A DNA stretch of 64,000 nucleotides from Candidatus Aenigmatarchaeota archaeon (GCA_016187385.1 JACPJU010000001.1:337144-401143), one strand, 5' to 3'; numbered from the stretch's first letter, positions 8,447-55,324 are shown. Translations and numbers: made by a program. The notes: a model not told the origin generated them from the letters alone.

Positions 8447-8904
8447 TTAATGAACACTATTGTAAAGTTCAATACGGCAGCAAAGCTCACCCATATTATG
8501 TATGGTATTAGAAGATAAGCCGCTGTCTTGGAGAATTTCCTGAACTCCATTATCGTCAGCAGAATGACCACCCACAATATTATTATTTCGGCCGACGCTA
8601 ACAGCGGATTCCTCAGACCGAAGAACAGCAATGACCAGAGAAGATTCAATGACAACTGTACGCCGAAGAGATACAACGCCTTCTTGGTGTTTTTCTTGCG
8701 GATATCCCATACGAGATACAGTGATACACCCATCATAATGAACAGTATTGTCCATACAGGAGCGAACATCCAGTTGGGCGGACTGAATGAAGGCTTGTTC
8801 AATGCGGCATACCACGTGTCTATCGACGGAGTTGTGAACACAGAACCGAGAAACCCTACGCCCAAGCAGATCAGAATGGATATTGCAAGTTTTGATATGT
8901 TCAT
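8434..8904 (-). CDS. tspO: TspO/MBR tryptophan-rich sensory protein
   Basis: 156 aa, 5 TM, W-rich conserved blocks (WYAALNKPSFSPPNWMFAPVWTILFIMMGVSLYLVW). Confidence 0.85.
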   Translation of the reverse strand: MNISKLAISILICLGVGFLGSVFTTPSIDTWYAALNKPSFSPPNWMFAPVWTILFIMMGVSLYLVWDIRKKNTKKALYLFGVQLSLNLLWSLLFFGLRNPLLASAEIIILWVVILLTIMEFRKFSKTAAYLLIPYIIWVSFAAVLNFTIVFINYLL

Positions 8905-12024: not shown

Positions 12025-12220
12025 TGATATTCTCTGTTTTAGAATTACTGATAATGTCTATCTCTGAGGAATTAACGGCGTGCCATCACTTTTTTGGCCA
12101 TCTTCCACGCGATAGATTTAAATATGTGCTACATAATACATATTAGCGAGTAAGTCCTCCCGAAAGGATGATGGCACCTTGAGGTGTATGGGAGCGAGTA
12201 GGGAAGGGTTCGCATTATTC

Positions 12221-24041: not shown

Positions 24042-24170
24042 TTAGTTGCTCCACTTCAATCTGCAATGAGGGCAAACCTCAATTTTTTCGAAAACGCCAG
24101 CTCTAACGAACGTATGGCATTTTCTACAAGGTACGTTGACCTTGCCAATGAACGGACTAAACTTTGACAT
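24042..24170 (-). CDS. Small 4-Cys zinc-ribbon protein (42 aa)
   Basis: Not in the track. Translation is MSKFSPFIGKVNVPCRKCHTFVRAGVFEKIEVCPHCRLKWSN. The SD-like GGGGTGA sits 4 nt upstream of the ATG. Confidence 0.35.
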   Translation of the reverse strand: MSKFSPFIGKVNVPCRKCHTFVRAGVFEKIEVCPHCRLKWSN

Positions 24171-24281
24171 ATTTCACCCCTTGGAGGATTACCGATCGAT
24201 AACCGAAGTATATTATATAGCTTTGCTAGTATATAAACATTTACAATTTTGGAGATAATTTCTAAACCAATCATGACTTTA

Positions 24282-24590
24282 TTATCTGGAGCTTCTAACG
24301 GATTCAATCTTTCTCTTTATTTCCATGTATCTCAAGATGCTGTTCACGTTAACGCCCGGCTTTATTCGCACCATTTTTATTTTCAGGAACGGTTCGACGC
24401 CTTCCTGTTCTATAATCGATTCTCTCAGATACTTGTCGATAAGTCTGGAAACGGTCTTATGGTTCAAATTGCATCTCCTGCCGATTTCTCTATACCATAA
24501 CCAGCTAGTTCTCGACTCTTCGAGGCATTTAACGACTCTGATTACGTTTTCCAGCTCGTCCTTGCGTATTTTATCTCCCGTTTTGGCCAT
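24282..24590 (-). CDS. Winged-helix transcriptional regulator
   Basis: 102 aa with a wHTH (WYREIGRRCNLNHKTVSRLIDKYLRESIIEQEG). Confidence 0.5.
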   Translation of the reverse strand: MAKTGDKIRKDELENVIRVVKCLEESRTSWLWYREIGRRCNLNHKTVSRLIDKYLRESIIEQEGVEPFLKIKMVRIKPGVNVNSILRYMEIKRKIESVRSSR

Positions 24591-24708
24591 ATATCTTTCA
24601 CCCGCGAATTCTCACGTCCCAGTTGGAGCATTTCTCACTCCTAATTGGTAAGATTGACACATAAACCTTAAAACCTGTATAAATTTTTAGTTACTTATTA
24701 TAATCGTT

Positions 24709-25329
24709 ATGACAAAGCTAGAAAAGAACGAGACAACACGATTCTACAGCAATCTGATGGAGATAGCTAGAAAGCCAAATACACAACAACGGTATAATTT
24801 GCTTGTTCAACTCCATCAGGAGACTCTTGATTTCTACGTTCCTACTATTCGTGCAATTACATCAAAAGCAGCATATACGCCAAGCAGTGATGGCAGACCA
24901 CTTTCGCTTGTCGTTGCTCATATAATGGGTTGGGAAGAATGGCAAATACAAGTGTTCAGCGATTCAAACAGAGAAGAACGATTACGAAAACAAATGAAAC
25001 TTCAAGGATATTATGACACTGATACAGAACAAATGACAGATTTCAAAAATGTAGATGATTTCAATGCTTATAATGCCCGCAGATACGGCAATCAATCATG
25101 GAATAAACTCCAGCAACAAGCAATCGATACGGCATTACATCTTCAGTCATTTTTTCCTCCAATCCCATATCATGACTGGATCGACTTCTTGGAGAATACG
25201 CCTATGCATAATTGGAGAATATTACCAAACAATGTTCTTGCTGTTCCTTATGGTTGGTATTTGTGGATGGTTTCTCTTGAGCATGAAGCAGTGGAACACA
25301 GAAAAGATTTAGAACAAACTAAACCCTAG
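24709..25329 (+). CDS. Possible ClbS/DfsB-like (DUF1706) four-helix-bundle protein
   Basis: 206 aa. LSLVVAHIMGWEEW resembles the AHLxxWxE motif of ClbS/DfsB. Weak assignment. Confidence 0.3.
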   Translation: MTKLEKNETTRFYSNLMEIARKPNTQQRYNLLVQLHQETLDFYVPTIRAITSKAAYTPSSDGRPLSLVVAHIMGWEEWQIQVFSDSNREERLRKQMKLQGYYDTDTEQMTDFKNVDDFNAYNARRYGNQSWNKLQQQAIDTALHLQSFFPPIPYHDWIDFLENTPMHNWRILPNNVLAVPYGWYLWMVSLEHEAVEHRKDLEQTKP

Positions 25330-25365
25330 AATAATCAAACTGTCTTAACAGATAAATGCATAATC

Positions 25366-25860
25366 TTAAAATTTGTATTCTTCCAGCTTGTAAACTTTTG
25401 AAACAACGACCTCTTTCCAGTCGCCTATGATGCTTCCAAATTTCTGTCTCAGTTCCATCTTCATCTCGTCCATCTCATAAGTGTCCTTGGCCAGAAACAC
25501 GACATACAGATCATAATCGCCTATCATGCCCATCAGATCTATAACCCTCGGATTTCTCATCAAGTCTTCAATAAGCGCGTTGTACTTTTCTCTGGTCATG
25601 TCCTTGAGTTTCACGTATATGTGGACGCCCAGCGGCAGTCCCATCTTGTCCACGTCAACCTGTATCGTATACCTGGATACAACTTTATCATTCTCCAATC
25701 TCTGCAGCCTCTTCTTTGTGGAATCCACTGAAAGACCTATCTCTTTGGCTAGACCGGTCAGTTTAATTCTCGCATTTTTAACCATGATATTTATGATTTT
25801 GCGGTCAATGTCGTCCGGCTCTCTTAATTTATAGTGTCTTTTACCTATTTTTGCTTCCAT
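25366..25860 (-). CDS. Lrp/AsnC family transcriptional regulator
   Basis: 164 aa with an N-terminal HTH (DDIDRKIINIMVKNARIKLTGLAKEIGLSVDSTKKRLQRLE) and a C-terminal RAM domain. Confidence 0.8.
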   Translation of the reverse strand: MEAKIGKRHYKLREPDDIDRKIINIMVKNARIKLTGLAKEIGLSVDSTKKRLQRLENDKVVSRYTIQVDVDKMGLPLGVHIYVKLKDMTREKYNALIEDLMRNPRVIDLMGMIGDYDLYVVFLAKDTYEMDEMKMELRQKFGSIIGDWKEVVVSKVYKLEEYKF

Positions 25861-26200
25861 TACTCTTAATTAATAAGATAAAAATTTAAATCTATCGTAT
25901 TTTTAAGCCATTTTCTGTTAAAACTATTAGTACTTCTATGACTACTAGATAGTAACAAGTGATGCAAATGAAAAAAGAATGCGATGTGTGCAGAACATAC
26001 ATCTTTGATGAGCAGCTTAGAAATCCAGCCCCAAGTGCAGCAAAAGGACATGCGTATACTGCAACAGGATGTGCGACATTTGTCTGAAGATGTTTTGTTT
26101 CGAAGACGTCCAAGTCAGGAAAGCCGCTATGCCAATGGGCGGCATTCAACTGATGAAACTCTGTGAGTTCTGCAAGGACCAGTTCAAGACGTGATGAAAA

Positions 26201-26662
26201 ATGGCTTTAGACGATGCGACAGATTTTTATCAAGCAGTCAGATCCTATTTCATGGAAGGTGGAACACATTCGAGTCAAATGGTAAGATACCAATTTTTTA
26301 CGAAACTGTTTTTAGACAGGCTTCCACAATTGCGAGCAAGTGAGGCGTACTATAATATTCATATATCATATCCATGGGGAAAACCACGAGAGTCAAGAAG
26401 GAAAATGAGAGACATAACACCAGAAGAACTGAGGGCTGTTTATTCAGTCGGTGCTGATAGATTCAATAAATCGGCTTCAATTGTTGGTACAAACGTGTCT
26501 AAAGGATTTCAGGTTCCAGTAACTCTTGACGATGCACTCTATGTATTATGCGATGCAATCCCAGAGGCATTCAGAAGAGTTCATGGTGACACCCCAATGG
26601 ATAGATATCAAGGCTCCATTAAAGCTGATTATGGCGGATTTGAAACAGGAAAAAGACGTTAA
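26201..26662 (+). CDS. Hypothetical protein
   Basis: 153-aa ORF. Confidence 0.35.
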   Translation: MALDDATDFYQAVRSYFMEGGTHSSQMVRYQFFTKLFLDRLPQLRASEAYYNIHISYPWGKPRESRRKMRDITPEELRAVYSVGADRFNKSASIVGTNVSKGFQVPVTLDDALYVLCDAIPEAFRRVHGDTPMDRYQGSIKADYGGFETGKRR

Positions 26663-26669
26663 CATTTAG

Positions 26670-27080
26670 ATGATTGCTATGTACGAGACTAAACCGTATC
26701 AATTTGGCGAAGAGAAGGCAGATGAGTTTAGAAAGCGGATATCGGCAGGACGCATACAATATTACGATGATATTAGCGTGTTAGGAGACGGTACAATCTT
26801 AGGCCATTCAGGTACAGGTGTATATATTTTGGGTGAAGATGGTCATCCGGTTTCAGCACGATTTTATGAAATCGCTCCGACGAGAAAGGGTTACATGGCC
26901 CGAATAGGTGGAACCAAGGTTTATCTTGATGGATATGGTACAATAAGAAGAGTTGAATTATCAGAAGGATTAAAGAGACTATGGTCAGAATCTCGTCAGA
27001 TGGAGGAAATGCATCGGTTTCTTCACGGAAAAAGTCTCAGAAGTTCCGCCAAGTATATATGGAAAAAATATCAAGTCTAG
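26670..27080 (+). CDS. Hypothetical protein
   Basis: 136-aa ORF, co-oriented and adjacent to the previous gene. Confidence 0.35.
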   Translation: MIAMYETKPYQFGEEKADEFRKRISAGRIQYYDDISVLGDGTILGHSGTGVYILGEDGHPVSARFYEIAPTRKGYMARIGGTKVYLDGYGTIRRVELSEGLKRLWSESRQMEEMHRFLHGKSLRSSAKYIWKKYQV

Positions 27081-27171
27081 TAAAGTCAGCGTGGAAGAAA
27101 ATGGTGGAAGGAAAGAACAAGGGTCATATGCAGATCATGAAACTGTGTAATAATTGCAATGATGCCAAGAT

Positions 27172-27912
27172 GTGGGTACAATGAACGATGTTGTTCTTTG
27201 GAAACCGCTTTACTACACAAGCATTGCGATGTTCGTTCTTTCTTTGGTTCTTTTTCCTTTCAGTTCGCAGTGGTCGATAATAGTCATTTTGGCTCTGGTT
27301 ACATTATGGAGCAGAATTCCAGGATTCGTTCATTTTATTTTCAACAAGTTGGCGTTGAATGATCTTTTTACTTTGATTATTGCCGTCCATGCCGGTCCAT
27401 TGGTTGGTGGTTTATTTGGCGTATTTGGGATAATGTTTGCGAGAATATTCGGACCAAACGAATGGCTGCCTTACAGCATAAGAGCAAGTGTCGCTGTATT
27501 TGTTGCCGGTATCAGCGTGCCTTTGATTACAAGTTTTACAGGAGGACTTGATGTGACAGCCTTGTATGCGTTTGAAGGCGTTCTTTACTTCACATATTAT
27601 GCACTTGTTTTGTTATTTTGGAAAGAAGAGATAGGACTGGAGATAGCGCTTTTGCCAGCTGTCATATTTTTTGACTTTTTCATGAACGCATTTCTGATAA
27701 GCGTTTTCGGCGAAACACTCTCCAACATGATGACTATTGGATTGAGTTCAGGATGGCCATTCTTGATATTCAGCGGAGTGATTCTGGCTTATGTCATGCT
27801 GGCGAGAAACGGGAAAAGGATTGCCGGTCTCTTGGAAAGATTGTGGAGCAAATTCGGAAGCGGTGAAAAGAAAGAACGGGATGAAAATTTGGCATATAGA
27901 ATTGGAATATAG
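27172..27912 (+). CDS. Polytopic membrane protein, hypothetical
   Basis: 246 aa with at least 6 predicted TM helices. Confidence 0.45.
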   Translation: MGTMNDVVLWKPLYYTSIAMFVLSLVLFPFSSQWSIIVILALVTLWSRIPGFVHFIFNKLALNDLFTLIIAVHAGPLVGGLFGVFGIMFARIFGPNEWLPYSIRASVAVFVAGISVPLITSFTGGLDVTALYAFEGVLYFTYYALVLLFWKEEIGLEIALLPAVIFFDFFMNAFLISVFGETLSNMMTIGLSSGWPFLIFSGVILAYVMLARNGKRIAGLLERLWSKFGSGEKKERDENLAYRIGI

Positions 27913-27920
27913 ATTTATCA

Positions 27921-28046
27921 TTATCTGCTTCTCTTGCGTTTCTTCCTGCAATCCTTGCACAGCCACAGGTAACCGGTCTTGAATAGTTTACCGACAGTTT
28001 TGACATTGCCCTTGCAACCATCACAGTTAATGTGAATAATACCCAC
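27921..28046 (-). CDS. Possible small zinc-ribbon protein (41 aa, GTG start)
   Basis: Translation is (M)GIIHINCDGCKGNVKTVGKLFKTGYLWLCKDCRKKRKRSR. It overlaps the 3' end of the LAGLIDADG gene. Low confidence. Confidence 0.2.
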   Translation of the reverse strand: MGIIHINCDGCKGNVKTVGKLFKTGYLWLCKDCRKKRKRSR

Positions 28047-28836
28047 CCTCTATAAATTTCATGAGTTCCAAAAGTCTGTCCTGTTTCCTTTTTATCGAAA
28101 ACCCTAAATTAACAAAGAAGTTTGTCAGACTTTCTGCTTTAATATACAAATTATAGTATGTACCATTCGGATTGAATGAAGACCCCCCAACTTTATATTT
28201 ATTAGCTTTAATTCCAAACTCTTCCAAAAGTCGTTTACACACATCTATTAATTGTTCATTTTTGTTAATAATCTTTATTTGATGACCATTGCAATTTTTA
28301 CGTTTTGTTATAGTACCTTCACTATCAAAAATACCCATCAGAAAACCACGCTTCATATCTTTACTCATTTTAAGTGCTTCTGTTGTGGGAAAATTTTTAA
28401 GGAATATATGCAAACTTTTTGAGTGAACAGTTGCGTTATAAAATCCTCTTTTGTCAAAAAAAGTTGTGCAATGACCACCTATTAAATTAATATGTTTTTC
28501 AAAAAATTCTACAAAATCTTTATCTTTAGCCTTTAATCTTACATAAAAATGTTCTGCACCATTTCTTTCTTTCCAAGAAGATAGATTTCCATCACCAAAA
28601 ACAACCCCAATAGTATAACCTAGCGAAAACGAAGGTTCCAGATTAATAAATTTCAAATCTTTAAAGGGTTTTTTAATTTTCAATCTAACAGCTTTAGTTC
28701 TTATGCCGCTTAATGTTCTTTGAGAAAATAAATCCTTCAAATCTCCAAAGCGATAAGATGGATATGCTTGTTTTAATCTCATTATTTCATTTGTGGTCCA
28801 TCTAGAAATTTTATCTTTCACAAATACTAATTTCAA
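28027..28836 (-). CDS. Free-standing LAGLIDADG homing endonuclease (double-motif)
   Basis: 269 aa with two LAGLIDADG motifs: IGVVFGDGNL and LMGIFDSEGTI. Confidence 0.75.
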   Translation of the reverse strand: MKLVFVKDKISRWTTNEIMRLKQAYPSYRFGDLKDLFSQRTLSGIRTKAVRLKIKKPFKDLKFINLEPSFSLGYTIGVVFGDGNLSSWKERNGAEHFYVRLKAKDKDFVEFFEKHINLIGGHCTTFFDKRGFYNATVHSKSLHIFLKNFPTTEALKMSKDMKRGFLMGIFDSEGTITKRKNCNGHQIKIINKNEQLIDVCKRLLEEFGIKANKYKVGGSSFNPNGTYYNLYIKAESLTNFFVNLGFSIKRKQDRLLELMKFIEGGYYSH

Positions 28837-28858
28837 TTGTAAGAATATAAATCTAAAA

Positions 28859-29728
28859 TTATTTTACAATCACACTTTTCTCAGCTACAGCCACCAAAGC
28901 ATTGCTCTCTTCCTTCAAAGGCGGATATTCTGCTATAGCTCCAACTTCAATCAATTGCCTCAGAGCCATGTCCATCTTCAAAGGCGACACTCCAGTGATC
29001 CATCTCTGCGTGAAGGGCAATTTCTCAAAATCATTCACAGCCATTTCCAAGACTTTCCTCGCCTCCCACAACCTCACAGGCGAATCTTTCCTGTATTGGA
29101 AAATTCTTGACGGGGAAGAGTCAACAACAAACCCGCTGCCGTCTGTCACAAACACTTCAACAGCATAGACATTCCCGCTTTCTATTTCGTCCTGCATCGA
29201 ATTCTTAATATTCGGTATTGAAGGATGCGCGTGCTGTTCGTGTCTTTCCAGCCTGTGACCGGTCAAATTCCTGATGACTTTGAATCCGGCGTCATTTACT
29301 GTATTTTCAATAACTTCGGAGACTTCAGAAACTTTCGTGCCATGCTTGAACATCTTCAACGCGTTCTCCAGTGCCTTCTCGGAAGCTTCTATCATAGGAT
29401 GCGACTTTTTTCCTATGCAGATTGTAAAAGCCCTGTCGCATATGTATCCGTTCACATGAACACCAATATCAATCTTCACCATATCGCCTTCCTCCAGCGC
29501 GTTATCGTCATTGATTGAAGGTGTGGCGTGCGCAGCTATCTCATTGACAGAAATGTTGACAGGCCATGCCGGCTTGCCTCCCAGTTCAATGACCCTTTTT
29601 TCTATAGTATCAGCTATATCCAGTATCCTGGCATTTTCCTTCACAAGTCTTTCTGCAAAACCGACAGCATCGCCCGCAATCAGAAAAGCCTTTTCATAAG
29701 CCTGCGCTTGTTCCTTTTCCATGTTCAT
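28859..29728 (-). CDS. map: Methionine aminopeptidase, type 2 (archaeal MAP2)
   Basis: 289 aa with the pita-bread fold metal ligands (D, D, H, E, E) in MAP2-like spacing (GHRLERHEQHAHPSIPN...YAVEVFVTDGSG). Confidence 0.85.
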   Translation of the reverse strand: MNMEKEQAQAYEKAFLIAGDAVGFAERLVKENARILDIADTIEKRVIELGGKPAWPVNISVNEIAAHATPSINDDNALEEGDMVKIDIGVHVNGYICDRAFTICIGKKSHPMIEASEKALENALKMFKHGTKVSEVSEVIENTVNDAGFKVIRNLTGHRLERHEQHAHPSIPNIKNSMQDEIESGNVYAVEVFVTDGSGFVVDSSPSRIFQYRKDSPVRLWEARKVLEMAVNDFEKLPFTQRWITGVSPLKMDMALRQLIEVGAIAEYPPLKEESNALVAVAEKSVIVK

Positions 29729-29761
29729 CTTTTAAATGAATGAAGTTTATGTATTTATTCT

Positions 29762-30373
29762 ATGAACTTAAAGTTAAATTGGACACTAACATTCCTCGCA
29801 GTATGCGTAGTTGTTTTCCTTTTTCAAATGATGGGCCTAGTCGATATCTTGACATTCGGCTTCACCCCCGCGCTCGCCATTCAACAGCCGTGGACATTCG
29901 TAACATCCATGTTCATGCACGGCGACATAACCCATCTGTTTTTCAACATGTTCGCACTTGCAATGTTCGGACTGATCCTAGAGAGCAAGATAGGATCAAG
30001 AAATTTTTTCATCGTCTATTTTCTTTCCGGGATAGCCGGAAGCATAGGATACATTATAACAACTTCCAACCCAAACATACCGGCGATCGGCGCAAGCGGT
30101 GCTGTGTATGGCATTATGGGGACTCTTGCTGTTTTGATGCCAGCCGCGACAGTCTGGTTTGGAGGGTTCGTTCCGATGCCGATGGCGTTTGCTGTCGTTT
30201 TCTGGACACTGTCGGAATTCTTCGGTTTGTTCGCTCCGAGCGGAATAGCGCACGGTGCTCACCTCTTCGGTTTGTTCATAGGGCTGGGTTATGGCTTCCT
30301 TCTCAGAAAACAAGAGCATAGAACAATGCACCGGAGAATAAAACTAGATGGATATGCCGACTGGGAAACCTAA
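29762..30373 (+). CDS. Rhomboid family intramembrane serine protease
   Basis: 203 aa, 6 TM. GASGAVYG (GxSG catalytic Ser) and AHGAHLFG (catalytic His) are present. Confidence 0.85.
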   Translation: MNLKLNWTLTFLAVCVVVFLFQMMGLVDILTFGFTPALAIQQPWTFVTSMFMHGDITHLFFNMFALAMFGLILESKIGSRNFFIVYFLSGIAGSIGYIITTSNPNIPAIGASGAVYGIMGTLAVLMPAATVWFGGFVPMPMAFAVVFWTLSEFFGLFAPSGIAHGAHLFGLFIGLGYGFLLRKQEHRTMHRRIKLDGYADWET

Positions 30374-30379
30374 AAGCTT

Positions 30380-30620
30380 TTAACACCAAAAACCAAATAA
30401 CACTTAGTTCAGATGTCATCCCGAACCTTAGCGCATCAAGTATGTGTACTAGTTTTGTCTAAGGTAAACTACACAGGAATTAAATGCTGATTCGGGATGA
30501 GTCCGCTTAAATTCTTCGGATGACCTAACACTTGTTCTGAATTGATTGGGAAAGGACGGCAGGTTATCCCCTTGGAGGCTATTCGATTTCTTTGTCGTCC
30601 CTCAATGATTGCTATGATTA
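30380..30620. ncRNA. Candidate structured non-coding RNA (unassigned; possible SRP-RNA-like element)
   Basis: The intergenic stretch is about 330 bp and relatively GC-rich, with long-range complementarity (GTCATCCCGAA / TTCGGGATG). It contains a GGGAAAGGACGGCAGG segment reminiscent of the SRP RNA helix-8 GGAA...AGCAG region and a hairpin whose loop carries CCCCTTGGAGG. Unverified. Confidence 0.2.
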
Positions 30621-30705
30621 AAAGATGGATAAGATTGGTATTGACGAAATACAGAAACAGGAAAAACAATGTTTAGTTGTTACTACCATCTTATTCGATG
30701 CATTC

Positions 30706-31947
30706 TTATTTTACGCTTTCTATAAATGGTCCAAAATCCGGATCAGAACGAAGTGCTTCTTTAACATCGTTTTCTTCAAGATCGCGTCGTGTATCAGGCT
30801 TAGAATAAGCACCTAGAACTAATTGGATCCTTCCATCAAAATCAATACCATTTTCATTGTAAATGTACTCAGGTTTCAAAACATTTGTGTATGCTATTAT
30901 AGTTGCTCCTAATTTTTTACCAATCTCTTCCCTTCTTCTAACTCCTCTTCTAAATCCTGTGTAAACCCCATCATAAGGATGATCACTGTCGATTATCTGA
31001 TAATTCCTGTAGAATAATGGCTTTGTCGCCTTTATTCCTATTAACGATCTTGTTTTCAACATCTTTACTCCCTGTATCTCTTCATCTGTTCTTGCCACCT
31101 CGGAGAGTCTCTTAACCCATATCTCGTCGTTGTCTGCATAAAGCCTTCTGCCGTTTTCATCAAGTTTTCTCATCAAAGATAAAAGTACAGTTTCGTAATA
31201 AGCTCCTGTAAGGTTTCTACTATATGCGTTTAAAACATTCGTTCTGGCTCTTTCTATACTTTCCCTATTTTTATGTTCATAACTTGGAAATTCGCCATCA
31301 TCAGATACTTCGTCATCATCAAGTACTACATAATTTGGAGGTACCACTCCTTCTCTTGAAAGTATTAATCCTCCCCTTTCAAGATCTATTTCCGCTTTTC
31401 TTAGAATCCTTTCCAAATATCTGCGTTCTGAAGTTGACATTGCGTCTAATGCTATATGAGAAGAATTTTCAAAACTTTGTGCGATTTTGTTGTATCTACC
31501 ATTTCCCTTTATTTCACCGGCAATTATTTCAGGGTCGCCAAAATTTTCTCGGATCCACATCGGCAGTTGTGAGCCTGTAAAATATCCTTGTCCTGTTAAT
31601 GCGTTAATATTAATTTGTTCTGTATCAAAAACCTCATCGCAATGTGGAACTGCAGCAGTTGTATTTGAATCATGCATTGCAAGTATCCCCATTATTATGC
31701 CTGTCTCAGTCGGACTTATTTCATCAGTCCTTAATAATATGGACCCTCCTATCCTCATCGCGTGCTCAATGTGATAAAATCTAGATAATCTCGATTGTAT
31801 TCCTTTGCTAGCTCTATAAGTCGAGAATGTAGGTCCCCATAAATTAACTCCTTTAAGTCTTTCTATTTCCCGAGGATAAGGTCTAGGTAAACTGGTGACA
31901 GATTCTCTTCTCGTGACTAATCTTGAACCTAATGTTATTTCATTCAT
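30706..31947 (-). CDS. Hypothetical protein, co-operonic partner of the NrdD-like gene
   Basis: 413 aa. Its start overlaps the stop of the upstream gene (ATGA). No recognisable motifs: no Walker A, no radical-SAM CxxxCxxC, no glycyl-radical motif. Confidence 0.5.
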   Translation of the reverse strand: MNEITLGSRLVTRRESVTSLPRPYPREIERLKGVNLWGPTFSTYRASKGIQSRLSRFYHIEHAMRIGGSILLRTDEISPTETGIIMGILAMHDSNTTAAVPHCDEVFDTEQININALTGQGYFTGSQLPMWIRENFGDPEIIAGEIKGNGRYNKIAQSFENSSHIALDAMSTSERRYLERILRKAEIDLERGGLILSREGVVPPNYVVLDDDEVSDDGEFPSYEHKNRESIERARTNVLNAYSRNLTGAYYETVLLSLMRKLDENGRRLYADNDEIWVKRLSEVARTDEEIQGVKMLKTRSLIGIKATKPLFYRNYQIIDSDHPYDGVYTGFRRGVRRREEIGKKLGATIIAYTNVLKPEYIYNENGIDFDGRIQLVLGAYSKPDTRRDLEENDVKEALRSDPDFGPFIESVK

Positions 31948-33869
31948 GTTAACACAAAATACCCTATGTCGGATTTACTAACTAGCTTTAAAATCTCTCC
32001 CAATTCCCTATCCTTTTTGATAATACTTTGATGACCAAAATCGTGTAATGCATGGAATTTTTTTTCTATCCGAATCTTTTCTTTAAGATCTATTCCAGAA
32101 TTTTCAGCAACTGATGACCCAGATGTATAGCATGGATTTTCCTTATCGCCACTGTAAATGACTTTGTCACCGAAGTCGTGTATATCTTTTTGGGCAAATC
32201 TTTCAAGTACAGGTTTGAATATGTGTTCACATACCCCAACTTTAAATGGCATCTTCTCATGTTCTACAGATTTTTTCATATGGTTCAGAACTTTCAAAGT
32301 AAAGTCTACAGATTCTTCATTTTCGTGCAATTGATATCCTACTAATTTTTTAGCAACTTCATTCAAGCCAGCCGTGCATACAACATAAGTTGACTTGTCC
32401 AAATCATAATATCTTTCACCACCGAATTTTGAGAAAATGAAAGATGGTGATGTATGTGATTTACCACCTATATATTCAGCCGATGCTGTTAGCACATCTA
32501 AACAAGCACCAATGCTTTTATCAAGGCTTTCAAAAAATTCAGATTCTCCTTTTGTTTGCCACGCTATGCGTGGTAGATTGATAGTAGTTGTTTGACAATT
32601 ACCTTTTCCAAACGAATTATCACTAATTGGATTGTCTATTCTTATTACTTCATGAAAATATGATGCATCTTTTTGCCAGGACGGCACTAGGTTAGCAAAT
32701 AAGGGTCTTGTTAACTTGTCTAGATTTTTTTCTATAGATTCTGTTGCTTCAGTTTTATCCCATCCTTTATACATGTTAAAAACTAGGCGCGGCTGTTTTA
32801 GCTTTTCTATCGCTTCCAAGAATGCTTTAGTTATAGATTGAGATTCCGATTCAAAATCACCGTAAGTACCAACGACTTTTCCTTTAGGTCCTATGGCTGG
32901 TTGTTTTTGTAAAGAGCTTGGAATTGCCAAGTCGAAACAGTAATAAAGTGCTGTACCTTGCATTGTCGATGAAATGTGGGTGTAGATATTCGCCAGATTT
33001 TCCATCATTTCTTTTAATTGAATAACATTTAGTCCAGAAATGAACGGTGCAAGGAAAACATTTAGATGATTAAACGCTTGCGGGCCAGCAATGTCTTTTT
33101 TTGACATCTCTAGTATGGTTCTCAGATAATTTAAGACATCGTAAAGATTCTTTGGAGGTTGTTGTTCAGATAACCCATTCTTTAAGATTGGTCTTAAATC
33201 ATGTAATATAGAAACTGGTTTAGGTATGCCAATATTATAAATGTCTATTCCCCCCTCGTTGTACATTTTTATCGACGATTCTAATTTTTTCTCTTTCATA
33301 ATATTTTGCAATGAATAGTCTCCAAAAATTCTCGTGGAAGATAATTTTTCTACTGATGAATCGAATATTTTTTTCTCTTCAAGTAAGATTCGTAAAATTA
33401 AAGACTCTAGACTACTAATGCTAATCCCCCCATAAACTTCATTTGAAATTTTTGATAAAACAGATTCTACAAGCCAAACTGGTATTCCTATGTCCATGAG
33501 TTTTTGGCGTAATTGGCTAGTTTTGAATTCTTCTGGCAATCCTTCCGCATTAACAATATGAAATGACGAATCTCCAATACTATCTTGTTTTGAAACAGAA
33601 CTAAGAACATCAAAATTTATTTTAAAATTTTTTAATACGTAAAGTTTTTTTTGCCTACCGTTGTCTATTTTAACGTCAGATTTTAGTATGTCTGCCTTTT
33701 CAAGCTCGTTCAGGTATTTGTGTGCTGTGGAAAAACTAAGTTTAAGCTTGTTTCTAACATCTGTAATGGAGTTTTCCCCTTCTTTTGCGATTAACTCGAC
33801 TATTTTGAATTTTCCTTCGCTATCTAAAGCCTTGAATTTTGAAATTGCATCCCGATTATTCTCTGTCAT
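31944..33869 (-). CDS. Class III ribonucleotide reductase (NrdD)-like protein lacking the glycyl-radical / Zn-ribbon C-terminal region, with an N-terminal winged HTH
   Basis: 641 aa. An N-terminal wHTH (ITDVRNKLKLSFSTAHKYLNELEKADIL) is followed by segments that I recall aligning with E. coli NrdD: LAPFISGLN vs LAPFV, and GNCQTTTINLPRIAWQTKGESEFFESL vs GVISLNLPRIALEAKGDEATFWKLL. No RVxGY glycyl-radical motif and no CxxC...CxxC zinc site are present. Confidence 0.5.
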   Translation of the reverse strand: MTENNRDAISKFKALDSEGKFKIVELIAKEGENSITDVRNKLKLSFSTAHKYLNELEKADILKSDVKIDNGRQKKLYVLKNFKINFDVLSSVSKQDSIGDSSFHIVNAEGLPEEFKTSQLRQKLMDIGIPVWLVESVLSKISNEVYGGISISSLESLILRILLEEKKIFDSSVEKLSSTRIFGDYSLQNIMKEKKLESSIKMYNEGGIDIYNIGIPKPVSILHDLRPILKNGLSEQQPPKNLYDVLNYLRTILEMSKKDIAGPQAFNHLNVFLAPFISGLNVIQLKEMMENLANIYTHISSTMQGTALYYCFDLAIPSSLQKQPAIGPKGKVVGTYGDFESESQSITKAFLEAIEKLKQPRLVFNMYKGWDKTEATESIEKNLDKLTRPLFANLVPSWQKDASYFHEVIRIDNPISDNSFGKGNCQTTTINLPRIAWQTKGESEFFESLDKSIGACLDVLTASAEYIGGKSHTSPSFIFSKFGGERYYDLDKSTYVVCTAGLNEVAKKLVGYQLHENEESVDFTLKVLNHMKKSVEHEKMPFKVGVCEHIFKPVLERFAQKDIHDFGDKVIYSGDKENPCYTSGSSVAENSGIDLKEKIRIEKKFHALHDFGHQSIIKKDRELGEILKLVSKSDIGYFVLT

Positions 33870-33966
33870 AATATCCTATTAAGTTTATGTTGAATGCTAA
33901 TATTTAAAAATGTGATATCAAGGATTTAAATGTATCATAATTTGTGATATATGTCAATAATTAATC

Positions 33967-35106
33967 CTATTTAAAATTTCTAAAAGCGGTTCGACTTTTT
34001 GTTACCGTGTATACATGAGGCAGTCTATTTTGAATGTGAACATCATCAGGTATAAATCTGGTCATGCCGGCAGAACCTAGTTTTGGCTTTTGGCTTAAAT
34101 AGTCATAAACTACAGTCATACCAAGTTCTAATCCTTTAATTATAGTTGACGGATCGATTATAGGCTGTTGTTCTAGATACCATAATAGTGTTCCACCCAA
34201 AACATCACCACATCCTATTGTACTTAATTCGCCAGTTCTGATATAAGGTAAACCAGAACAAACCGTTCTTACCACATCCTGACCTTCTTTGTGGTATATG
34301 CTTATTTCAGTTGCTCTTGTGGTGATTATTGCCATGAGATTCTTGTGTGACGCCATTAACCGTTGTGGACCAGTGTGTATATTTCCTGTTAGTAAGTAAG
34401 TTTCGTCTTGGTTGCTTCTTAGTATGTCGATTTTCGATAGCTGACTCTCTACAAGTTTTGGGTTTTTACGCATATCAGGACCAGGATCGTAATATATAAT
34501 AGTGTTTTCACCCCCCTGTTTGTAACTTCTTATAGCATTAATGATTGTAGGTTGTGCTTCGACAAACCCCCCAGTTACGCTGATTATTCCTAAGTAGCCG
34601 ATGTTAGCAAGTCTATTAAGAAGGGAAACTACAACTTTCGGATCTCTAAAGTCATAATATGCTCTGCCTTCTCCAGTGTTTTCATAAAGTGATTCTAACC
34701 GATGATGTCTAGCTTCGATACGGTCTCGTACTCTCTTGTTGGATATAGATGATATATCTTCTATCGGTGCTGGAACTTTAAATGAGGTGGTTGGTGTATC
34801 AGATTTGTGTAACACAGGGGTCGTGTATCTTAATGATCCGAGAATATCGTGACTACTGTGTCCTTGAAATTCAGCTTCGGTTCTATTTTTATAGAAATCA
34901 GGACCTACAGATGATACTAAATAAGCTCCTCCTCCTTTTCCATATGCCCTACAAAGTCTGTCAATAGTAAGGGCTTGGTTAAGGCCACATCCTCCCCATT
35001 TTGGTGTAAATCCAATTTCTTGAGCGCTTTCATCAAAAAACAAGTCGAATGCTATCGGACCGAAAACAGCTATATGTCTGTGTGGTTCATAGTCTGTTTT
35101 TGACAT
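33967..35106 (-). CDS. PfkB-family carbohydrate/nucleoside kinase
   Basis: 379 aa with an N-terminal GG motif (KWGGCGLNQA) and a C-terminal anion-hole motif (STIGCGDVLGG ~ DTxGAGD). Confidence 0.55.
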   Translation of the reverse strand: MSKTDYEPHRHIAVFGPIAFDLFFDESAQEIGFTPKWGGCGLNQALTIDRLCRAYGKGGGAYLVSSVGPDFYKNRTEAEFQGHSSHDILGSLRYTTPVLHKSDTPTTSFKVPAPIEDISSISNKRVRDRIEARHHRLESLYENTGEGRAYYDFRDPKVVVSLLNRLANIGYLGIISVTGGFVEAQPTIINAIRSYKQGGENTIIYYDPGPDMRKNPKLVESQLSKIDILRSNQDETYLLTGNIHTGPQRLMASHKNLMAIITTRATEISIYHKEGQDVVRTVCSGLPYIRTGELSTIGCGDVLGGTLLWYLEQQPIIDPSTIIKGLELGMTVVYDYLSQKPKLGSAGMTRFIPDDVHIQNRLPHVYTVTKSRTAFRNFK

Positions 35107-35379
35107 GGAATTATATTAAATACTAACATTTAAAAATCTGTAGCTTAGGTATCATAACTCTCGATATATCATAATTTATGATATTCTATATCAAGAAGAG
35201 AGATATATAAATACTCCTGAGAAATTATCTGTTAGGTGATGAATGATGTTAGAAAACTTGCAACAAACTGATTTCACACTTGTAAACTCAAGGTGTGAAG
35301 GAGGGGAATAAATATGATGAATATAGTCTTTGACTAATGCGTATTATAGTAGTTTCTTTCTCCTTTTGGCCGATCAACC

Positions 35380-35437
35380 GAAGTCGGAGAACCACCCCCT
35401 TGGAGGATCCGTTACTATAAACATGTTCTCCGACTTC
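35380..35437 (+). other. Perfect 13-bp inverted repeat hairpin (GAAGTCGGAGAAC...GTTCTCCGACTTC) with the CCCCTTGGAGG motif in its loop
   Basis: Read directly from the sequence. It sits in a 530-bp intergenic region between the kinase and ogg genes. Confidence 0.5.
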
Positions 35438-35636
35438 AATTATTTTTATGGTGCTAATATGAGCGACAAAACATGGGCAAAATTAGTGTTAACAAAATAT
35501 AGAAATAGTAAAGGCAGTAAGAAGTGATTACTGTCGGCGCCTTCTCTCCCGCTTTCTTCTTCTCATTCTCTGTTTTCTGGTTTTCTTCCTGCGCCTTCTT
35601 TTCTCCCCGGCTGCCATTTACATCACTTGAATTTTC

Positions 35637-36272
35637 CTATTTAAAAATGAATCCAGTCTCCTTCGACCATAACAACAAGTCCAATTCATCCAGTGGAATT
35701 TCCATCTTGCCCGCGAATCGTTTCATCTTCTCTTCTATATCAAGATACAAATTTTTTGTTAGAGATTTCGGCACCTGTTCGATTACATCAAATTTTTCCA
35801 GATTTCTCAGTATATGAGTGTCCAATATCGCCAACTGATTTTCGCTTAGTCCTATGTTTCTTATGAAATGAGACGACTCCTTCATGCCTATGCCTTTCAC
35901 ATTCTCAACTATCCAGCCTCGCAAGGAAATAGGGTCTTTGAACTGCGATAACTTTTTCTTAATTACAATTCTTCCGTTTTCTGTAAAGAATTTTCTCGCT
36001 CCAATCAGATACCCTGTTTTATTGTTTCCAAATCTCACAGCATTCAGGAACGGTCTTATCTCATCATAATCGCCCGTAAAGAGCAGACTGTTCTTTTCCA
36101 AGGACTTTATAACATTCCAGCATATCGTGGCTTTCGACTGCGGAGTCAGAATACAGAAAGCAAGTTCTGCAAACAGTTTTTCATCCGTCTGGTCTGATAC
36201 GGATTTAAATTCATCCAATCTTTTCCTGATATCCGTCTTTTTGCCTTCGTACAATTTTCTTATTTCTTCCAT
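35637..36272 (-). CDS. ogg: N-glycosylase/DNA lyase (archaeal Ogg2-type 8-oxoguanine DNA glycosylase, HhH-GPD)
   Basis: 211 aa. AELAFCILTPQSKA and the HhH block GIGMKESSHFIRNIGL...LDTHILR are present. Confidence 0.7.
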   Translation of the reverse strand: MEEIRKLYEGKKTDIRKRLDEFKSVSDQTDEKLFAELAFCILTPQSKATICWNVIKSLEKNSLLFTGDYDEIRPFLNAVRFGNNKTGYLIGARKFFTENGRIVIKKKLSQFKDPISLRGWIVENVKGIGMKESSHFIRNIGLSENQLAILDTHILRNLEKFDVIEQVPKSLTKNLYLDIEEKMKRFAGKMEIPLDELDLLLWSKETGFIFK

Positions 36273-43007: not shown

Positions 43008-43229
43008 TTATCTCCTCTTCAATCTTACTACCTTTATCATATCCCCTTTAACATCCGGATAAGTATCTTCAATTTCACCTTGCATATGCTTTGCTAAATA
43101 TATTGAGACTGTTGATCTATCTAGTCCAGTTCTTCTTGATATTTCTCTTATCCATAGACCTTTTGGATTTTTCTTCAACACTTTTCTAATCAATTCAATT
43201 TTATCTATATCAGGACCTTTCTTAGACAT
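43008..43229 (-). CDS. Small winged-helix DNA-binding protein
   Basis: 73 aa (LWIREISRRTGLDRSTVSIYLAKHMQGE). Confidence 0.45.
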   Translation of the reverse strand: MSKKGPDIDKIELIRKVLKKNPKGLWIREISRRTGLDRSTVSIYLAKHMQGEIEDTYPDVKGDMIKVVRLKRR

Positions 43230-54346: not shown

Positions 54347-54496
54347 AAATAAATGACGACGCAGTGGAATTCCCGTGGTTTCCCACAGTACAACCCACTA
54401 CGCTGGACCGTTTCACTTCTGTGTTCAAATGGGAACAGGTGGTACCAGTCCGCTTTGGTCGTCAATAAAATTAAGTGTCATCTAATGTTTTTAAAG

Positions 54497-55207: not shown

Positions 55208-55324
55208 TCCCCGTTGAGAGATTCGAACTCTCGACCTATCGCTTTCTATATGAGCAGTTCCTGGCTGATAAGCACATTTAGTACTCAACTACAGGCGACC
55301 GCTCTACCGCTGAGCTAAACGGGG
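55208..55324 (-). tRNA. tRNA-Tyr (GTA) with a canonical 45-nt intron after position 37
   Basis: Reverse complement: CCCCGTT-TA-GCTC-AGCGGTA-GAGC-G-GTCGC-CTGTAG | intron TTGAGTACTAAATGTGCTTATCAGCCAGGAACTGCTCATATAGAA | A-GCGAT-AGGTC-GAGAG-TTCGAAT-CTCTC-AACGGGG-A. All stems pair. Confidence 0.8.

Follow-up and report, generated by a model that had tools for sequence, protein, structure and literature searches.

The window analysed in this work, a stretch of 64,000 nucleotides from an Aenigmarchaeota (DPANN) genome, contains three exact copies of an 11-nt motif (motif M, CCCCTTGGAGG; RNA form CCCCUUGGAGG), all matching on the plus strand (24177-24187, 30568-30578 and 35396-35406) and all located in modules of small genes. 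Copy 1 lies in the 5'UTR of zn42, a zinc-ribbon gene encoded on the opposite strand, and copies 2 and 3 occupy the loops of two hairpins, designated type B and type A, respectively, with a three-gene operon between them. The features of the locus are as follows.

24042..24170, minus strand: zn42, a 42-aa zinc-ribbon gene (MSKFSPFIGKVNVPCRKCHTFVRAGVFEKIEVCPHCRLKWSN); homolog P0069, syntenic loci L019/L020
24177..24187, minus strand: motif M copy 1, reading CCUCCAAGGGG (DNA CCTCCAAGGGG) in the zn42 5'UTR
24192..24209, plus strand: X-like box CCGATCGATAACCGAAGT after M at copy 1, read from the sequence and compared with type A box X
24230..24237, minus strand: zn42 TATA box TTTATATA, conserved between the window and L019/L020
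30413..30544, plus strand: conserved type B left flank, non-coding or a 25-aa micro-ORF, aligning with L019 upstream of the L019 type B hairpin
30545..30606, plus strand: type B hairpin (outer stem, 3-nt bulge, 8-bp inner stem), without box X
30568..30578, plus strand: motif M copy 2, in the type B loop
30614..30676, plus strand: micro-ORF MIKRWIRLVLTKYRNRKNNV, paralog of 35459-35527, with an in-frame ATG also at 30605
30706..35106, minus strand: three-gene operon between copies 2 and 3 (Pfam and NCBIfam)
35236..35311, plus strand: decayed remnant of the zinc-ribbon gene Zn52, whose promoter/operator and N-terminal codons align with the intact L006 gene
35362..35379, plus strand: box X (CCTTTTGGCCGATCAACC), the single-stranded 5' part of type A, single copy in the window
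35380..35437, plus strand: type A hairpin, perfect 13-bp stem (35380-35392 / 35425-35437) and 32-nt loop
35396..35406, plus strand: motif M copy 3, beginning 3 nt into the type A loop
35440..35449, plus strand: T-rich tract TTATTTTTAT after the type A hairpin, read from the sequence
35459..35527, plus strand: micro-ORF MSDKTWAKLVLTKYRNSKGSKK, downstream of the type A hairpin

The operon encodes a weak PfkB-like protein of 379 aa, a wHTH-NrdD-like protein of 641 aa and an unknown protein of 413 aa; a search of genome contigs with the NrdD-like protein as query returned one irrelevant Atribacterota match. The two window micro-ORFs differ from each other at third codon positions, and their pattern, MxxKTWx(K/R)LVx(T/A)K(Y/F)(K/R), is kept in 8 lineages. 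In related genomes the hairpin element lies 3' of Zn52, a gene of ~52 aa on the same strand, usually directly at its stop codon, and in most loci it also precedes another same-strand gene. The Zn52 remnant of the window aligns to the L006 gene with a local score of 96 (shuffle maximum, 52) and carries an in-frame stop after 11 codons. Since the window element has been kept despite the decay of Zn52, and since in L027 it precedes a convergent gene, the element does not merely serve a neighbouring gene.

Copies of motif M
No exact match to M is expected by shuffling (0.00; 0.43 with one mismatch allowed), so that the proposal of three identical 11-mers beyond chance was borne out by the three copies found. 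The original prediction had placed copies 1 and 3 correctly (24177 and 35396), and the start of the middle copy, given as 30558, is corrected here to 30568. A hairpin had been claimed around every copy; this holds for 30568 and 35396 but fails at 24177, where the best flanking stem scores 6.5, a value reached by 17.5% of random window positions. A CGAT/CGTT-containing segment follows M in the window as described, but it is absent as a conserved feature in relatives and is not part of the motif.

A further M copy was not found in the 5.8 kb of genome beyond the window, and a literature search on the motif returned mammalian primers only. The reading of M as coding sequence was discarded, as the frames differ between copies 2 and 3 and the X-to-M spacing varies by 1 nt among homologs; likewise, a minus-strand ORF across the region (FLYFVNTN...) was ruled out by the missing start codon at copy 3.

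The type A element
Type A copies share a common plan, consisting of a single-stranded box X, a stem of 13-14 bp, a loop of ~30-36 nt and a T- or pyrimidine-rich tail. Around the motif, a perfect inverted repeat of 13 bp had been described; it was recovered in the window, with 35380-35392 pairing with 35425-35437 and M in the loop; this hairpin has a fold energy of -23.3 kcal/mol (z = -2.8) and a covariance-model score of 93.9 bits. In type A loops M sits 2-3 nt 3' of the 5' arm and, more generally, it is unpaired in every hairpin and close to the 5' side of the loop. Across ~17 copies, comprising type A, type B and the zn42 site, M shows no substitution. Besides M, box X (TTTTGGCCGATCAACC) is essentially unchanged in type A, the main type: its TTTTGGCCGATCAAC is identical in all 13 distinct type A sequences of the alignment, with the following base differing in one.

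While these boxes stay fixed, the stems drift. Among the 13 distinct sequences, 7 of the 14 stem pairs display compensatory double changes and 96% of the cells are paired, with no one-sided changes other than at a marginal loop-proximal pair. None of 500 shuffles performed as well, slid controls were 32-54% paired, and RNAalifold returned the same helix. The type A hairpin thus carries compensatory base changes in independent sequences, which points to a structured RNA.

In all type A copies the stem is followed by a T- or pyrimidine-rich tail, with runs of at least 5 T in about half; in the window, the tract at 35440..35449 is a possible archaeal termination signal. A TATA-like box is present 22-29 nt 5' of X in most type A copies. 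Given this box and the position after Zn52, the RNA would belong to the Zn52 transcript as its 3'UTR or else form an independently started transcript of ~95 nt. When the type A covariance model was applied, copy 1 scored only 11 bits, type B was not detected, and no further copies were found over 251 kb.

The type B element
A second hairpin had been predicted at the middle copy; it is present, and larger than claimed. Its inner stem, formed by GGACGGCA (30554-30561) and TGTCGTCC (30593-30600) with one G-U pair, is extended beyond a 3-nt bulge by an outer stem of ATTGGG (30545-30550) and CTCAAT (30601-30606). The fold is more stable on the plus strand (-18.9 vs -11.2 kcal/mol on the minus strand), where both non-Watson-Crick pairs of the hairpin are G-U. 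The ortholog in L019/L020 displays the same architecture with a different stem sequence, neighbouring proteins being only 29-87% identical between the window and these loci. Type B copies have no T-run.

Copy 1 and the zn42 gene
The zn42 protein is 79% identical to its homolog P0069 and of the same length, and the genes on both sides of copy 1 are conserved. From the TATA box at 24230..24237, a zn42 5'UTR of ~40 nt containing M is expected, the transcription start being placed by the usual archaeal TATA-to-start distance. On the minus strand, copy 1 overlaps the first four G of the zn42 Shine-Dalgarno sequence GGGGUGA (DNA GGGGTGA), which confirms the described overlap of the motif with the Shine-Dalgarno of a tiny zinc-ribbon ORF (24170..24042), within CCTCCAAGGGGTGAAATATG of the minus strand. 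The complement of M, the Shine-Dalgarno and the ATG form a perfectly conserved island in the zn42 5'UTR of the window and L019/L020, while the remaining UTR has diverged and the flanking proteins share only 29-79% identity; the X-like box of copy 1 is missing in the L019 ortholog. The further suggestion of a Shine-Dalgarno-sequestering element stands in part: the link to a Shine-Dalgarno applies to copy 24177 only, and this copy resembles a target for the hairpin loops more than a sequestering hairpin complete in itself.

When 386 ORF starts were ranked as predicted duplex partners of the window loops, zn42 came first for each loop (-30.2 and -29.4 kcal/mol, with z about -5.7); the ranking was obtained with loop-only scoring, as full-length duplex scoring did not discriminate. 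The perfect complement to the loops extends over 11-13 nt and overlaps the zn42 Shine-Dalgarno. The element therefore has an unpaired region complementary to the initiation region of an mRNA from another locus, as do antisense sRNAs. A zn42 gene with the complement of M was found in only two lineages, and both genomes carrying this site also carry hairpin copies. Seed and target are co-conserved in the one other lineage (L019/L020 with L021-23) where both were visible; moreover, the contig listed for Zn52 protein P0078 has a length of 288,177 bp, the same as the L020 contig with its type B hairpin and zn42 site.

Distribution and classes considered
The element is found in many Aenigmarchaeota contigs, with at least 13 distinct sequences from related genomes, in agreement with the expectation that the motif would not be limited to the window. 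Its position is orthologous across genomes; the 64-kb window has three copies of the motif, and most related loci have one per 9-20 kb. We regard M as the signature of a structured RNA element confined to an Aenigmarchaeota clade, in whose loop it stays unpaired and invariant. Membership of a small RNA family, one of the options originally listed, is favoured by the conserved hairpin, covarying stem and invariant loop shared by copies 30568 and 35396; the hairpin element is previously undescribed and a candidate new RNA family.

A scan of the whole window at the Rfam 15 gathering threshold gave no match at the three sites, and at permissive E-values nothing above noise (at most 20 bits, E of at least 1.9) appeared in 35107-35640 and 30374-30710. 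Viral contigs scanned with the X..M pattern gave no match. A bacterial-style promoter/terminator scan flagged none of the three sites, a result uninformative for an archaeon.

Several known classes were considered and rejected. The boxes of a box C/D sRNA (RUGAUGA C box, CUGA D box, with 10-12 nt guides) are missing in the type A alignment; GGAUGA/CUGA strings in the type B left flank are not kept in L019, and the Rfam C/D matches were noise. The defining boxes of H/ACA, K-turn, SECIS and tRNA-like elements are missing too. A replication origin (ORB) was discarded given copies in direct orientation, kilobases apart and without Orc1/Cdc6 context, and a dispersed repeat of the MITE/REP type (many copies, terminal inverted repeats, target duplications) given few copies at orthologous positions. 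For an integron attC site, the R''/R' boxes (RYYYAAC...GTTRRRY) are missing at the stem base, which reads GAAGT.../...ACTTC; AAC/GTT occur in the type A stem only at its loop end. By inspection, pseudoknots of M with X or with the tail are not conserved across lineages, and neither is the pairing by which the CCCC of M would sequester in cis the Shine-Dalgarno of the downstream gene.

Discussion
Our preferred explanation, held tentatively and with more doubt than conviction, is that the hairpin RNA may expose M as an antisense seed that pairs with the zn42 ribosome-binding site. Copy 1 is an exact complement placed on that site, which suggests an RNA-against-RNA switch. The hairpin RNAs would display the C-rich M as an accessible seed, this seed would pair over 11-13 bp with the zn42 ribosome-binding region, and the pairing would control zn42 translation or stability. 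The explanation starts from what was observed: the repeats, a hairpin whose stem covaries, the lack of change in M and X, the genes around the copies, and the complementarity together with its conservation in a second genome. It presumes that the hairpins are transcribed from the plus strand, that the two RNAs meet, and that the effect has a given direction. The strand assignment is based on the location 3' of Zn52, the presence of a downstream same-strand gene in most loci, the T-rich tail and the G-U pairs of type B.

Several points speak against antisense pairing, apart from the finding of the zn42 site in two lineages only. First, M has not undergone even a transition that G-U pairing would tolerate, which fits recognition by a protein at least as well as pairing. 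Second, pairing with zn42 offers no explanation for box X, which varies as little as M; a complement to X occurs only in the zn42 UTR of the window, in an order that precludes one continuous duplex. Third, common descent could have left this complementarity behind, if copy 1 is a decayed copy of the element.

The main rival, possible though rather doubtful, is that M and box X are sequence-specific protein-binding sites, an option already listed in the original prediction and kept alive by the absolute invariance of both boxes, which lack wobble-type changes. In its RNA version, an RNA-binding protein would read M and X on the hairpin, leading to autoregulation or RNP formation; Zn52 would be a candidate, and type A elements go strictly together with a Zn52 gene. 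Similarity is seen between the left half of X (CCUUUUGGCCGAUC) and M with its flank (CCCCUUGGAGGAUC), which have CCYYUUGGNNGAUY in common at 10 of 14 positions; this hints at two sites for one binding factor. However, one RNA-binding protein cannot read both CCCCUUGGAGG and its complement, so that copy 1 would be unexplained unless it is also transcribed antisense. Further, the window retains the element though its Zn52 has decayed, and no family or fold of known nucleic-acid binding could be assigned to Zn52: Pfam gave sub-threshold zinc-ribbon matches only (including Elf1-like at E = 0.002), and with an AlphaFold model of pLDDT 72, Foldseek found nothing in the PDB below E = 0.4. In its DNA version, a regulator would read the double-stranded 11-mer in either orientation, which would account for the orientation of copy 1 opposite to transcription and for its location where a repressor would classically bind, with the zn42 TATA box on one side and the ATG on the other, but not for the covarying stem and the fixed place of M in the loop.

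Less probable is that the hairpin mainly constitutes a 3'-end structure of Zn52 (terminator or stabiliser) or an intercistronic processing signal, with M as a processing or recognition signal and copy 1 as an unrelated relic; we consider it unlikely. The location of the element after Zn52, usually at its stop codon, and the tails of type A agree with such a role, as does the equivalent zinc-ribbon gene of the relative L009, which ends in a plain poly-T tract without a hairpin. Nevertheless, oligo-T alone suffices for archaeal termination, which therefore requires neither the invariant 11-mer nor the invariant 16-mer; type B copies lack the T-run; and the exact complement kept in the zn42 5'UTR of two genomes is unexplained. 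The originally proposed terminator function is plausible as a secondary role in the main type and cannot explain the invariant 11-mer.

Pairing with 16S rRNA was considered as well, with X directed to its 5' end and the GGAGG(AUCC) of M to its 3' end (anti-Shine-Dalgarno), in a pre-rRNA- or 30S-binding RNA; we hold this to be very improbable. The constancy of M and X would be accounted for by a partner that itself never changes. Fibrillarin and Nop5 genes neighbour most type A loci, and M with its flank (GGAGGAUCC) is similar to the complement of the 16S 3' end (GGAUCACCUCC). Nine nucleotides of the universal 5' end of archaeal 16S rRNA, which is targeted by primer TTCCGGTTGATCCYGCCGGA (PMC3157894), recur in the complement of X (CGGUUGAUC). 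Yet this 9-mer match was found post hoc, with an estimated chance of roughly 0.2-0.4 of arising somewhere; moreover, the model gives no account of the CCCCUU half of M, mature subunits bury the 16S 5' end, and the element has no C/D boxes. It is equally improbable that the ~95-nt hairpin RNA would bridge or cap the (pre-)16S rRNA ends, as a U3-like assembly chaperone or a ribosome-silencing RNA, in the reduced cell of a DPANN archaeon, with the zn42 site mimicking the rRNA 3' end.

Least credible of all is that insertion of gene blocks left the repeats behind, as recombination sites or scars resembling att cores, attC sites or MITEs. The three window copies share one orientation, copies 2 and 3 are direct repeats around a 4.8-kb operon missing from the same locus in L019/L020, where the left flank of copy 2 and the right flank of copy 3 meet at a single element, and in L006 the same operon lies between two 103-nt element copies 100% identical to each other. 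Against it, integrase, transposase and HUH genes were not found between or beside the copies, the segment from copy 1 to copy 2 includes the housekeeping methionine aminopeptidase gene, synteny does not break at copy 1, whose flanking genes are conserved on both sides, the element holds its place after Zn52 in many genomes without the operon, attC core boxes are missing at the stem base, an invariant loop on covarying stems, maintained over long divergence, is a sign of selection rather than of scars, and two old paralogous modules of small genes, together with gene conversion, account for the L006 pattern.

Aenigmarchaeota have very small genomes and, to our knowledge, no cultured genetic system, and our literature search brought up nothing on regulatory RNAs in them or in other DPANN archaea. 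The element offers a concrete candidate that can be tested: a structured RNA spread across the clade, in which two single-stranded boxes never vary, and a perfectly complementary ribosome-binding site in zn42. If the pairing is true, sRNA-type translational control would operate in reduced archaea and would link a network of unannotated micro-proteins (zinc ribbons and a basic peptide of ~20 aa); if a protein reads the motif instead, the element would define a new RNA-protein module. Under either reading, it is useful as an annotation marker for these genomes.

Compared with known systems, the element resembles integron attC sites and HUH substrates (REP, IS200/IS605 ends, rolling-circle origins) in its variable stem with an invariant short motif and in the direct repeats flanking a gene block, but it differs from them in having no nearby integrase or HUH enzyme, R''/R' boxes, terminal repeats or target duplications, and in its few copies at fixed, non-dispersed chromosomal places. 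With 3'UTR or intercistronic stem-loops (terminator or stabiliser hairpins) and 3'UTR-derived sRNAs it shares the location after a gene, usually at the stop codon, and the stable stem followed by a U-rich tract, as well as a possible internal promoter in the end of the upstream gene; in contrast to such stem-loops, in which normally only structure is conserved, it has two invariant boxes, and one copy outlasts its upstream gene.

C-rich loop seeds are found in bacterial sRNAs such as the staphylococcal RsaE and RNAIII. The element has no sequence or Rfam relationship to known sRNAs and, unlike trans-acting sRNAs that mask ribosome-binding sites, it follows on from the 3' end of a zinc-ribbon gene or precedes a micro-ORF, its seed is fully invariant over deep divergence, and its loop is unusually large. 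Like those sRNAs, it displays in its hairpin loop a C-rich motif with exact complementarity to the G-rich Shine-Dalgarno region of an mRNA from another locus. The element likewise conforms to the short structured RNAs with conserved single-stranded regions of this class, such as sRNA162 of Methanosarcina mazei, for which two conserved unpaired domains have been described (PMC3510493), as are X and M in the element reported here.

Motif copies in the window

The 11-nt motif M, CCCCTTGGAGG, is found in three exact copies, all on the + strand, and the repetition is real and above chance as originally predicted, the expectation in dinucleotide-preserving shuffles of the window being 0.00 exact matches, or 0.43 with one mismatch allowed. 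From M rightwards, copies 2 and 3 share ~130 nt of paralogous sequence, a micro-ORF included, and they flank a three-gene operon on the - strand:

24177, + strand: copy 1 of M
30568, + strand: copy 2 of M
30614-30676, + strand: micro-ORF MIKRWIRLVLTKYRNRKNNV, paralog of 35459-35527
between copies 2 and 3, - strand: operon gene, weak PfkB/ribokinase-like protein, 379 aa
between copies 2 and 3, - strand: operon gene, wHTH-NrdD-like protein, 641 aa
between copies 2 and 3, - strand: operon gene, unknown protein, 413 aa
35396, + strand: copy 3 of M
35459-35527, + strand: micro-ORF MSDKTWAKLVLTKYRNSKGSKK, paralog of 30614-30676

The original prediction placed copy 2 at 30558, a coordinate corrected here, and put every copy in a potential hairpin, which holds for copies 2 and 3 and not for copy 1. 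The perfect 13-bp inverted repeat around copy 3 was recovered (35380-35392 pairs with 35425-35437), and the stem around copy 2 consists of an 8-bp inner stem with one G-U pair and a 6-bp outer stem past a 3-nt bulge (30545-30606). Copy 1 lacks a meaningful hairpin, its best flanking stem being matched at 17.5% of random window positions; its proposed overlap with the Shine-Dalgarno sequence of a zinc-ribbon ORF (24170..24042), the 42-aa gene zn42, is correct, since CCTCCAAGGGGTGAAATATG on the - strand continues into the Shine-Dalgarno sequence and the start codon of that ORF. Copies 2 and 3 belong to an undescribed, clade-specific family of hairpin RNAs with an invariant loop motif, and copy 1, which overlaps the ribosome-binding site of a conserved gene for a micro-protein, is the exact complement of this motif.

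A covarying hairpin in related genomes

In a relative with the same operon (locus L006), M occurs twice within a 103-nt direct repeat, 100% identical, that flanks the operon; one repeat copy begins directly after the stop codon of Zn52, a zinc-ribbon gene of ~52 aa, and the other ~60 nt beyond its Zn52 gene. More copies were collected by scanning metagenomes for the pattern CCGATCAACCGA..M, by a profile search with the Zn52 family and by look-ups of the encoding contigs. The resulting set, termed type A, comprises 13 distinct sequences with one common plan: Zn52 upstream on the same strand, its stop codon usually abutting the element; the single-stranded box X, (C/T)TTTTGGCCGATCAACC, essentially invariant (TTTTGGCCGATCAAC is identical in 13/13 copies, one of which differs at the following base); a 13-14 bp stem with a loop of ~30-36 nt, M beginning 2-3 nt past the 5' arm; and a T- or pyrimidine-rich tail after the 3' arm. 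Most loci continue on the same strand with another small zinc-ribbon gene; in L027 a convergent gene takes its place. Copy 3 is a type A element, and the Zn52 gene beside it is a remnant, with a promoter/operator and first codons that align with L006 and a stop after 11 codons.

The 14-pair helix has 96% of its cells paired across the 13 sequences, with double-sided (compensatory) changes in 7/14 pairs and a one-sided change in none except the marginal loop-proximal pair; 0/500 shuffles were as good, and slid controls reached at most 32-54% pairing. RNAalifold returned the same single helix, leaving M unpaired. The suggestion of a small RNA family, for which a covariance model had been proposed as a check, is upheld: the type A stem covaries, and type A copies were the only matches, in the 251 kb searched, of a model built from type A, while no Rfam family matched the element. 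M shows zero substitutions in any copy, in contrast to the drifting stem. A conserved, selected, structured RNA element is highly likely, a claim much firmer than that of an antisense or a protein-site mechanism.

Two paralogous tiny zinc-ribbon modules recur at these and similar loci (L016 660-2011; L017 9355-10900; L021 10001-11122), in a conserved neighborhood with a 312-aa HTH gene, an AsnC-type regulator, fibrillarin and Nop5. The first runs from Zn52 through the hairpin to a 42-aa gene beginning MK(T/L)CRICKLEYS, and the second has a Zn51 gene overlapping a 48-aa gene, then the micro-ORF; no family match was found for any module gene.

The type B element and the zn42 site

The zn42 protein has one database homolog (79% identical), whose loci (L019/L020) are syntenic with the window (EF-1alpha, S10, Cmk, YdjM and Ogg; 29-87% protein identity) and contain M twice. 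The first occurrence is a hairpin orthologous to copy 2 and without box X, here called type B. Its left flank is homologous to that of copy 2 over ~130 nt, and its architecture (outer stem, bulge, inner stem) is that of copy 2, the stem sequence itself being different; the micro-ORF and a convergent L41e-like gene follow. The second lies directly upstream of zn42, as CCTCCAAGGGGTGAAACATG. Between the two species, the alignment conserves the zn42 TATA box TTTATATA, and the ~40-nt 5'UTR has diverged outside a perfectly conserved island formed by M (- strand), Shine-Dalgarno sequence and ATG. A type A element is apparently present in the L019/L020 organism too, judging from the Zn52 protein P0078; as this protein seems to come from the L020 organism, the zn42 site would be accompanied by type A and type B elements in both genomes in which zn42 was seen.

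The conserved type B left flank holds a 25-aa ORF (window 30413-30490, +, MSSRTLAHQVCVLVLSKVNYTGIKC; L019 5997-5920, -, MPSNTLACMNKVSLIFAKVIYTSKC) with a conserved TATA-like AAG(C/T)TTTTAA box upstream, which may be coding or part of a longer RNA. Upstream of zn42, a 102-aa gene (24282-24590, -) has a paralog at ~43017-43229 (-; 36% identical over 80 aa) and an ortholog beside zn42 in L019 (42% identical).

Strand and transcription

The genes that flank or precede the element are on the M (+) strand, as is its T-rich tail. In the window type B hairpin, both non-Watson-Crick pairs are G-U on the + strand, with a fold energy of -18.9 kcal/mol versus -11.2 on the - strand. Copy 1, being in the zn42 5'UTR, is transcribed from the - strand; transcripts from the hairpins and from zn42 would therefore carry M in complementary forms. 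Most type A copies have a TATA-like box 22-29 nt upstream of X, so the element may have its own transcription start. In most copies the box is part of the Zn52 codons for N-I-(R/K)-C; in the window and one L006 element, both detached from Zn52, it lies in non-coding DNA (farther off in the latter, at ~-37).

The operon, micro-ORFs and other features

The NrdD-like operon is absent from the corresponding locus in L019/L020, and the window accordingly resembles the L019/L020 arrangement with a 4.8-kb block added, bordered on both sides by the duplicated M-to-micro-ORF stretch. The NrdD-like protein itself matches, at 100% identity, a protein annotated in a Candidatus Aenigmarchaeota MAG. The operon (30706-35106) is an insertion relative to L019 (5200-6400)/L020, and the adjoining gene pair for methionine aminopeptidase and rhomboid lies in opposite orientation in the window and these loci. 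A conserved palindromic box, ATATCA(C/T)AAAT(T/C)ATGATA, is found both in the promoter region shared by the divergent NrdD-like operon and Zn52 and ahead of the NrdD-like gene (window 33930-33952 and 35149-35186; L006 8714-8740 and 13603-13629; L009 about 8700-8740); it is likely an operator, perhaps bound by the wHTH domain that the NrdD-like protein carries.

The micro-ORF is a real micro-gene, since eight lineages encode the same basic peptide of 19-26 aa, MxxKTWx(K/R)LVx(T/A)K(Y/F)(K/R) (loci in the window, L013, L016, L017, L018, L019 and L025; absent from gene calls in the loci examined); the window pair differs at third codon positions, in a synonymous-type manner. It follows the hairpin in the window and L019, and a zinc-ribbon gene pair elsewhere. 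Convergent with it is a 29-aa, extremely basic ORF (35528-35617, -, MAAGEKRRRRKKTRKQRMRRRKRERRRRQ) resembling ribosomal protein L41e and conserved in L019 (MAAGEKRRRRRKTKKQRMRRRKRMRKRQH).

Other features of the window were the following:

12144-12215, + strand: DUF3800-X RNA motif, strong Rfam match (75.8 bits; gathering score 38.2)
28027-28836, - strand: free-standing LAGLIDADG_3 homing-endonuclease-like gene beside the methionine aminopeptidase gene, not in syntenic L019
53358-53467, - strand: tRNA gene (110 nt), found by Rfam and missed by ARAGORN, probably intron-bearing
54351-54466, - strand: stand-alone 5S rRNA gene, between the two tRNA genes
55208-55324, - strand: tRNA gene (117 nt), found by Rfam and missed by ARAGORN, probably intron-bearing

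Candidate functions

We tentatively propose an antisense action on zn42, which would account for most of the facts. The hairpin RNAs would expose CCCCUUGGAGG as an accessible, C-rich seed, whose partner at the ribosome-binding site of zn42 would be CCUCCAAGGGG; the duplex would span 11 bp, extended to 13 bp for the copy-3 loop. When the loops alone were scored against 386 ORF starts, zn42 ranked first for both window loops (duplexes of -30.2 and -29.4 kcal/mol; z about -5.7), a rank that follows from the exact match and shows the match to be unique.

This proposal leaves box X unaccounted for, and M lacks even wobble-compatible changes, a total invariance that fits recognition by a protein equally well. 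M and X as a sequence-specific protein site, at the RNA or DNA level, is an alternative only slightly less probable than the antisense action. It is also favored by the similarity between the left part of X (CCUUUUGGCCGAUC) and M with its flanking bases (CCCCUUGGAGGAUC), a hint that a single factor may bind at both. A function purely in termination or processing is improbable, as it would not need the invariant boxes and fails for type B. Pairing with 16S rRNA, of X with the 5' end and of the M region with the 3' end, is speculative and very improbable: GGAGGAUCC, M plus flank, resembles the complement of the 16S 3' end, and the complement of X, CUUCGGUUGAUCGGCC (35362-35379), has nine contiguous bases, CGGUUGAUC, in common with the 5' end of 16S rRNA that is universal in archaea (primer in PMC3157894). 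A recombination site, suggested by direct repeats around the operon in two genomes, is hardly credible given the covarying stem, the orthologous element position in genomes without the operon, the synteny on both sides of copy 1 and the lack of a recombinase gene between or beside the copies; a better explanation of the L006 repeats is that gene conversion has homogenised two old, paralogous modules of zinc-ribbon genes.

The element would be typed as a structured regulatory RNA, perhaps antisense-acting. The proposed arrangement of hairpins and zn42 resembles that of small RNAs that mask ribosome-binding sites, such as archaeal sRNA162 (PMC3510493).
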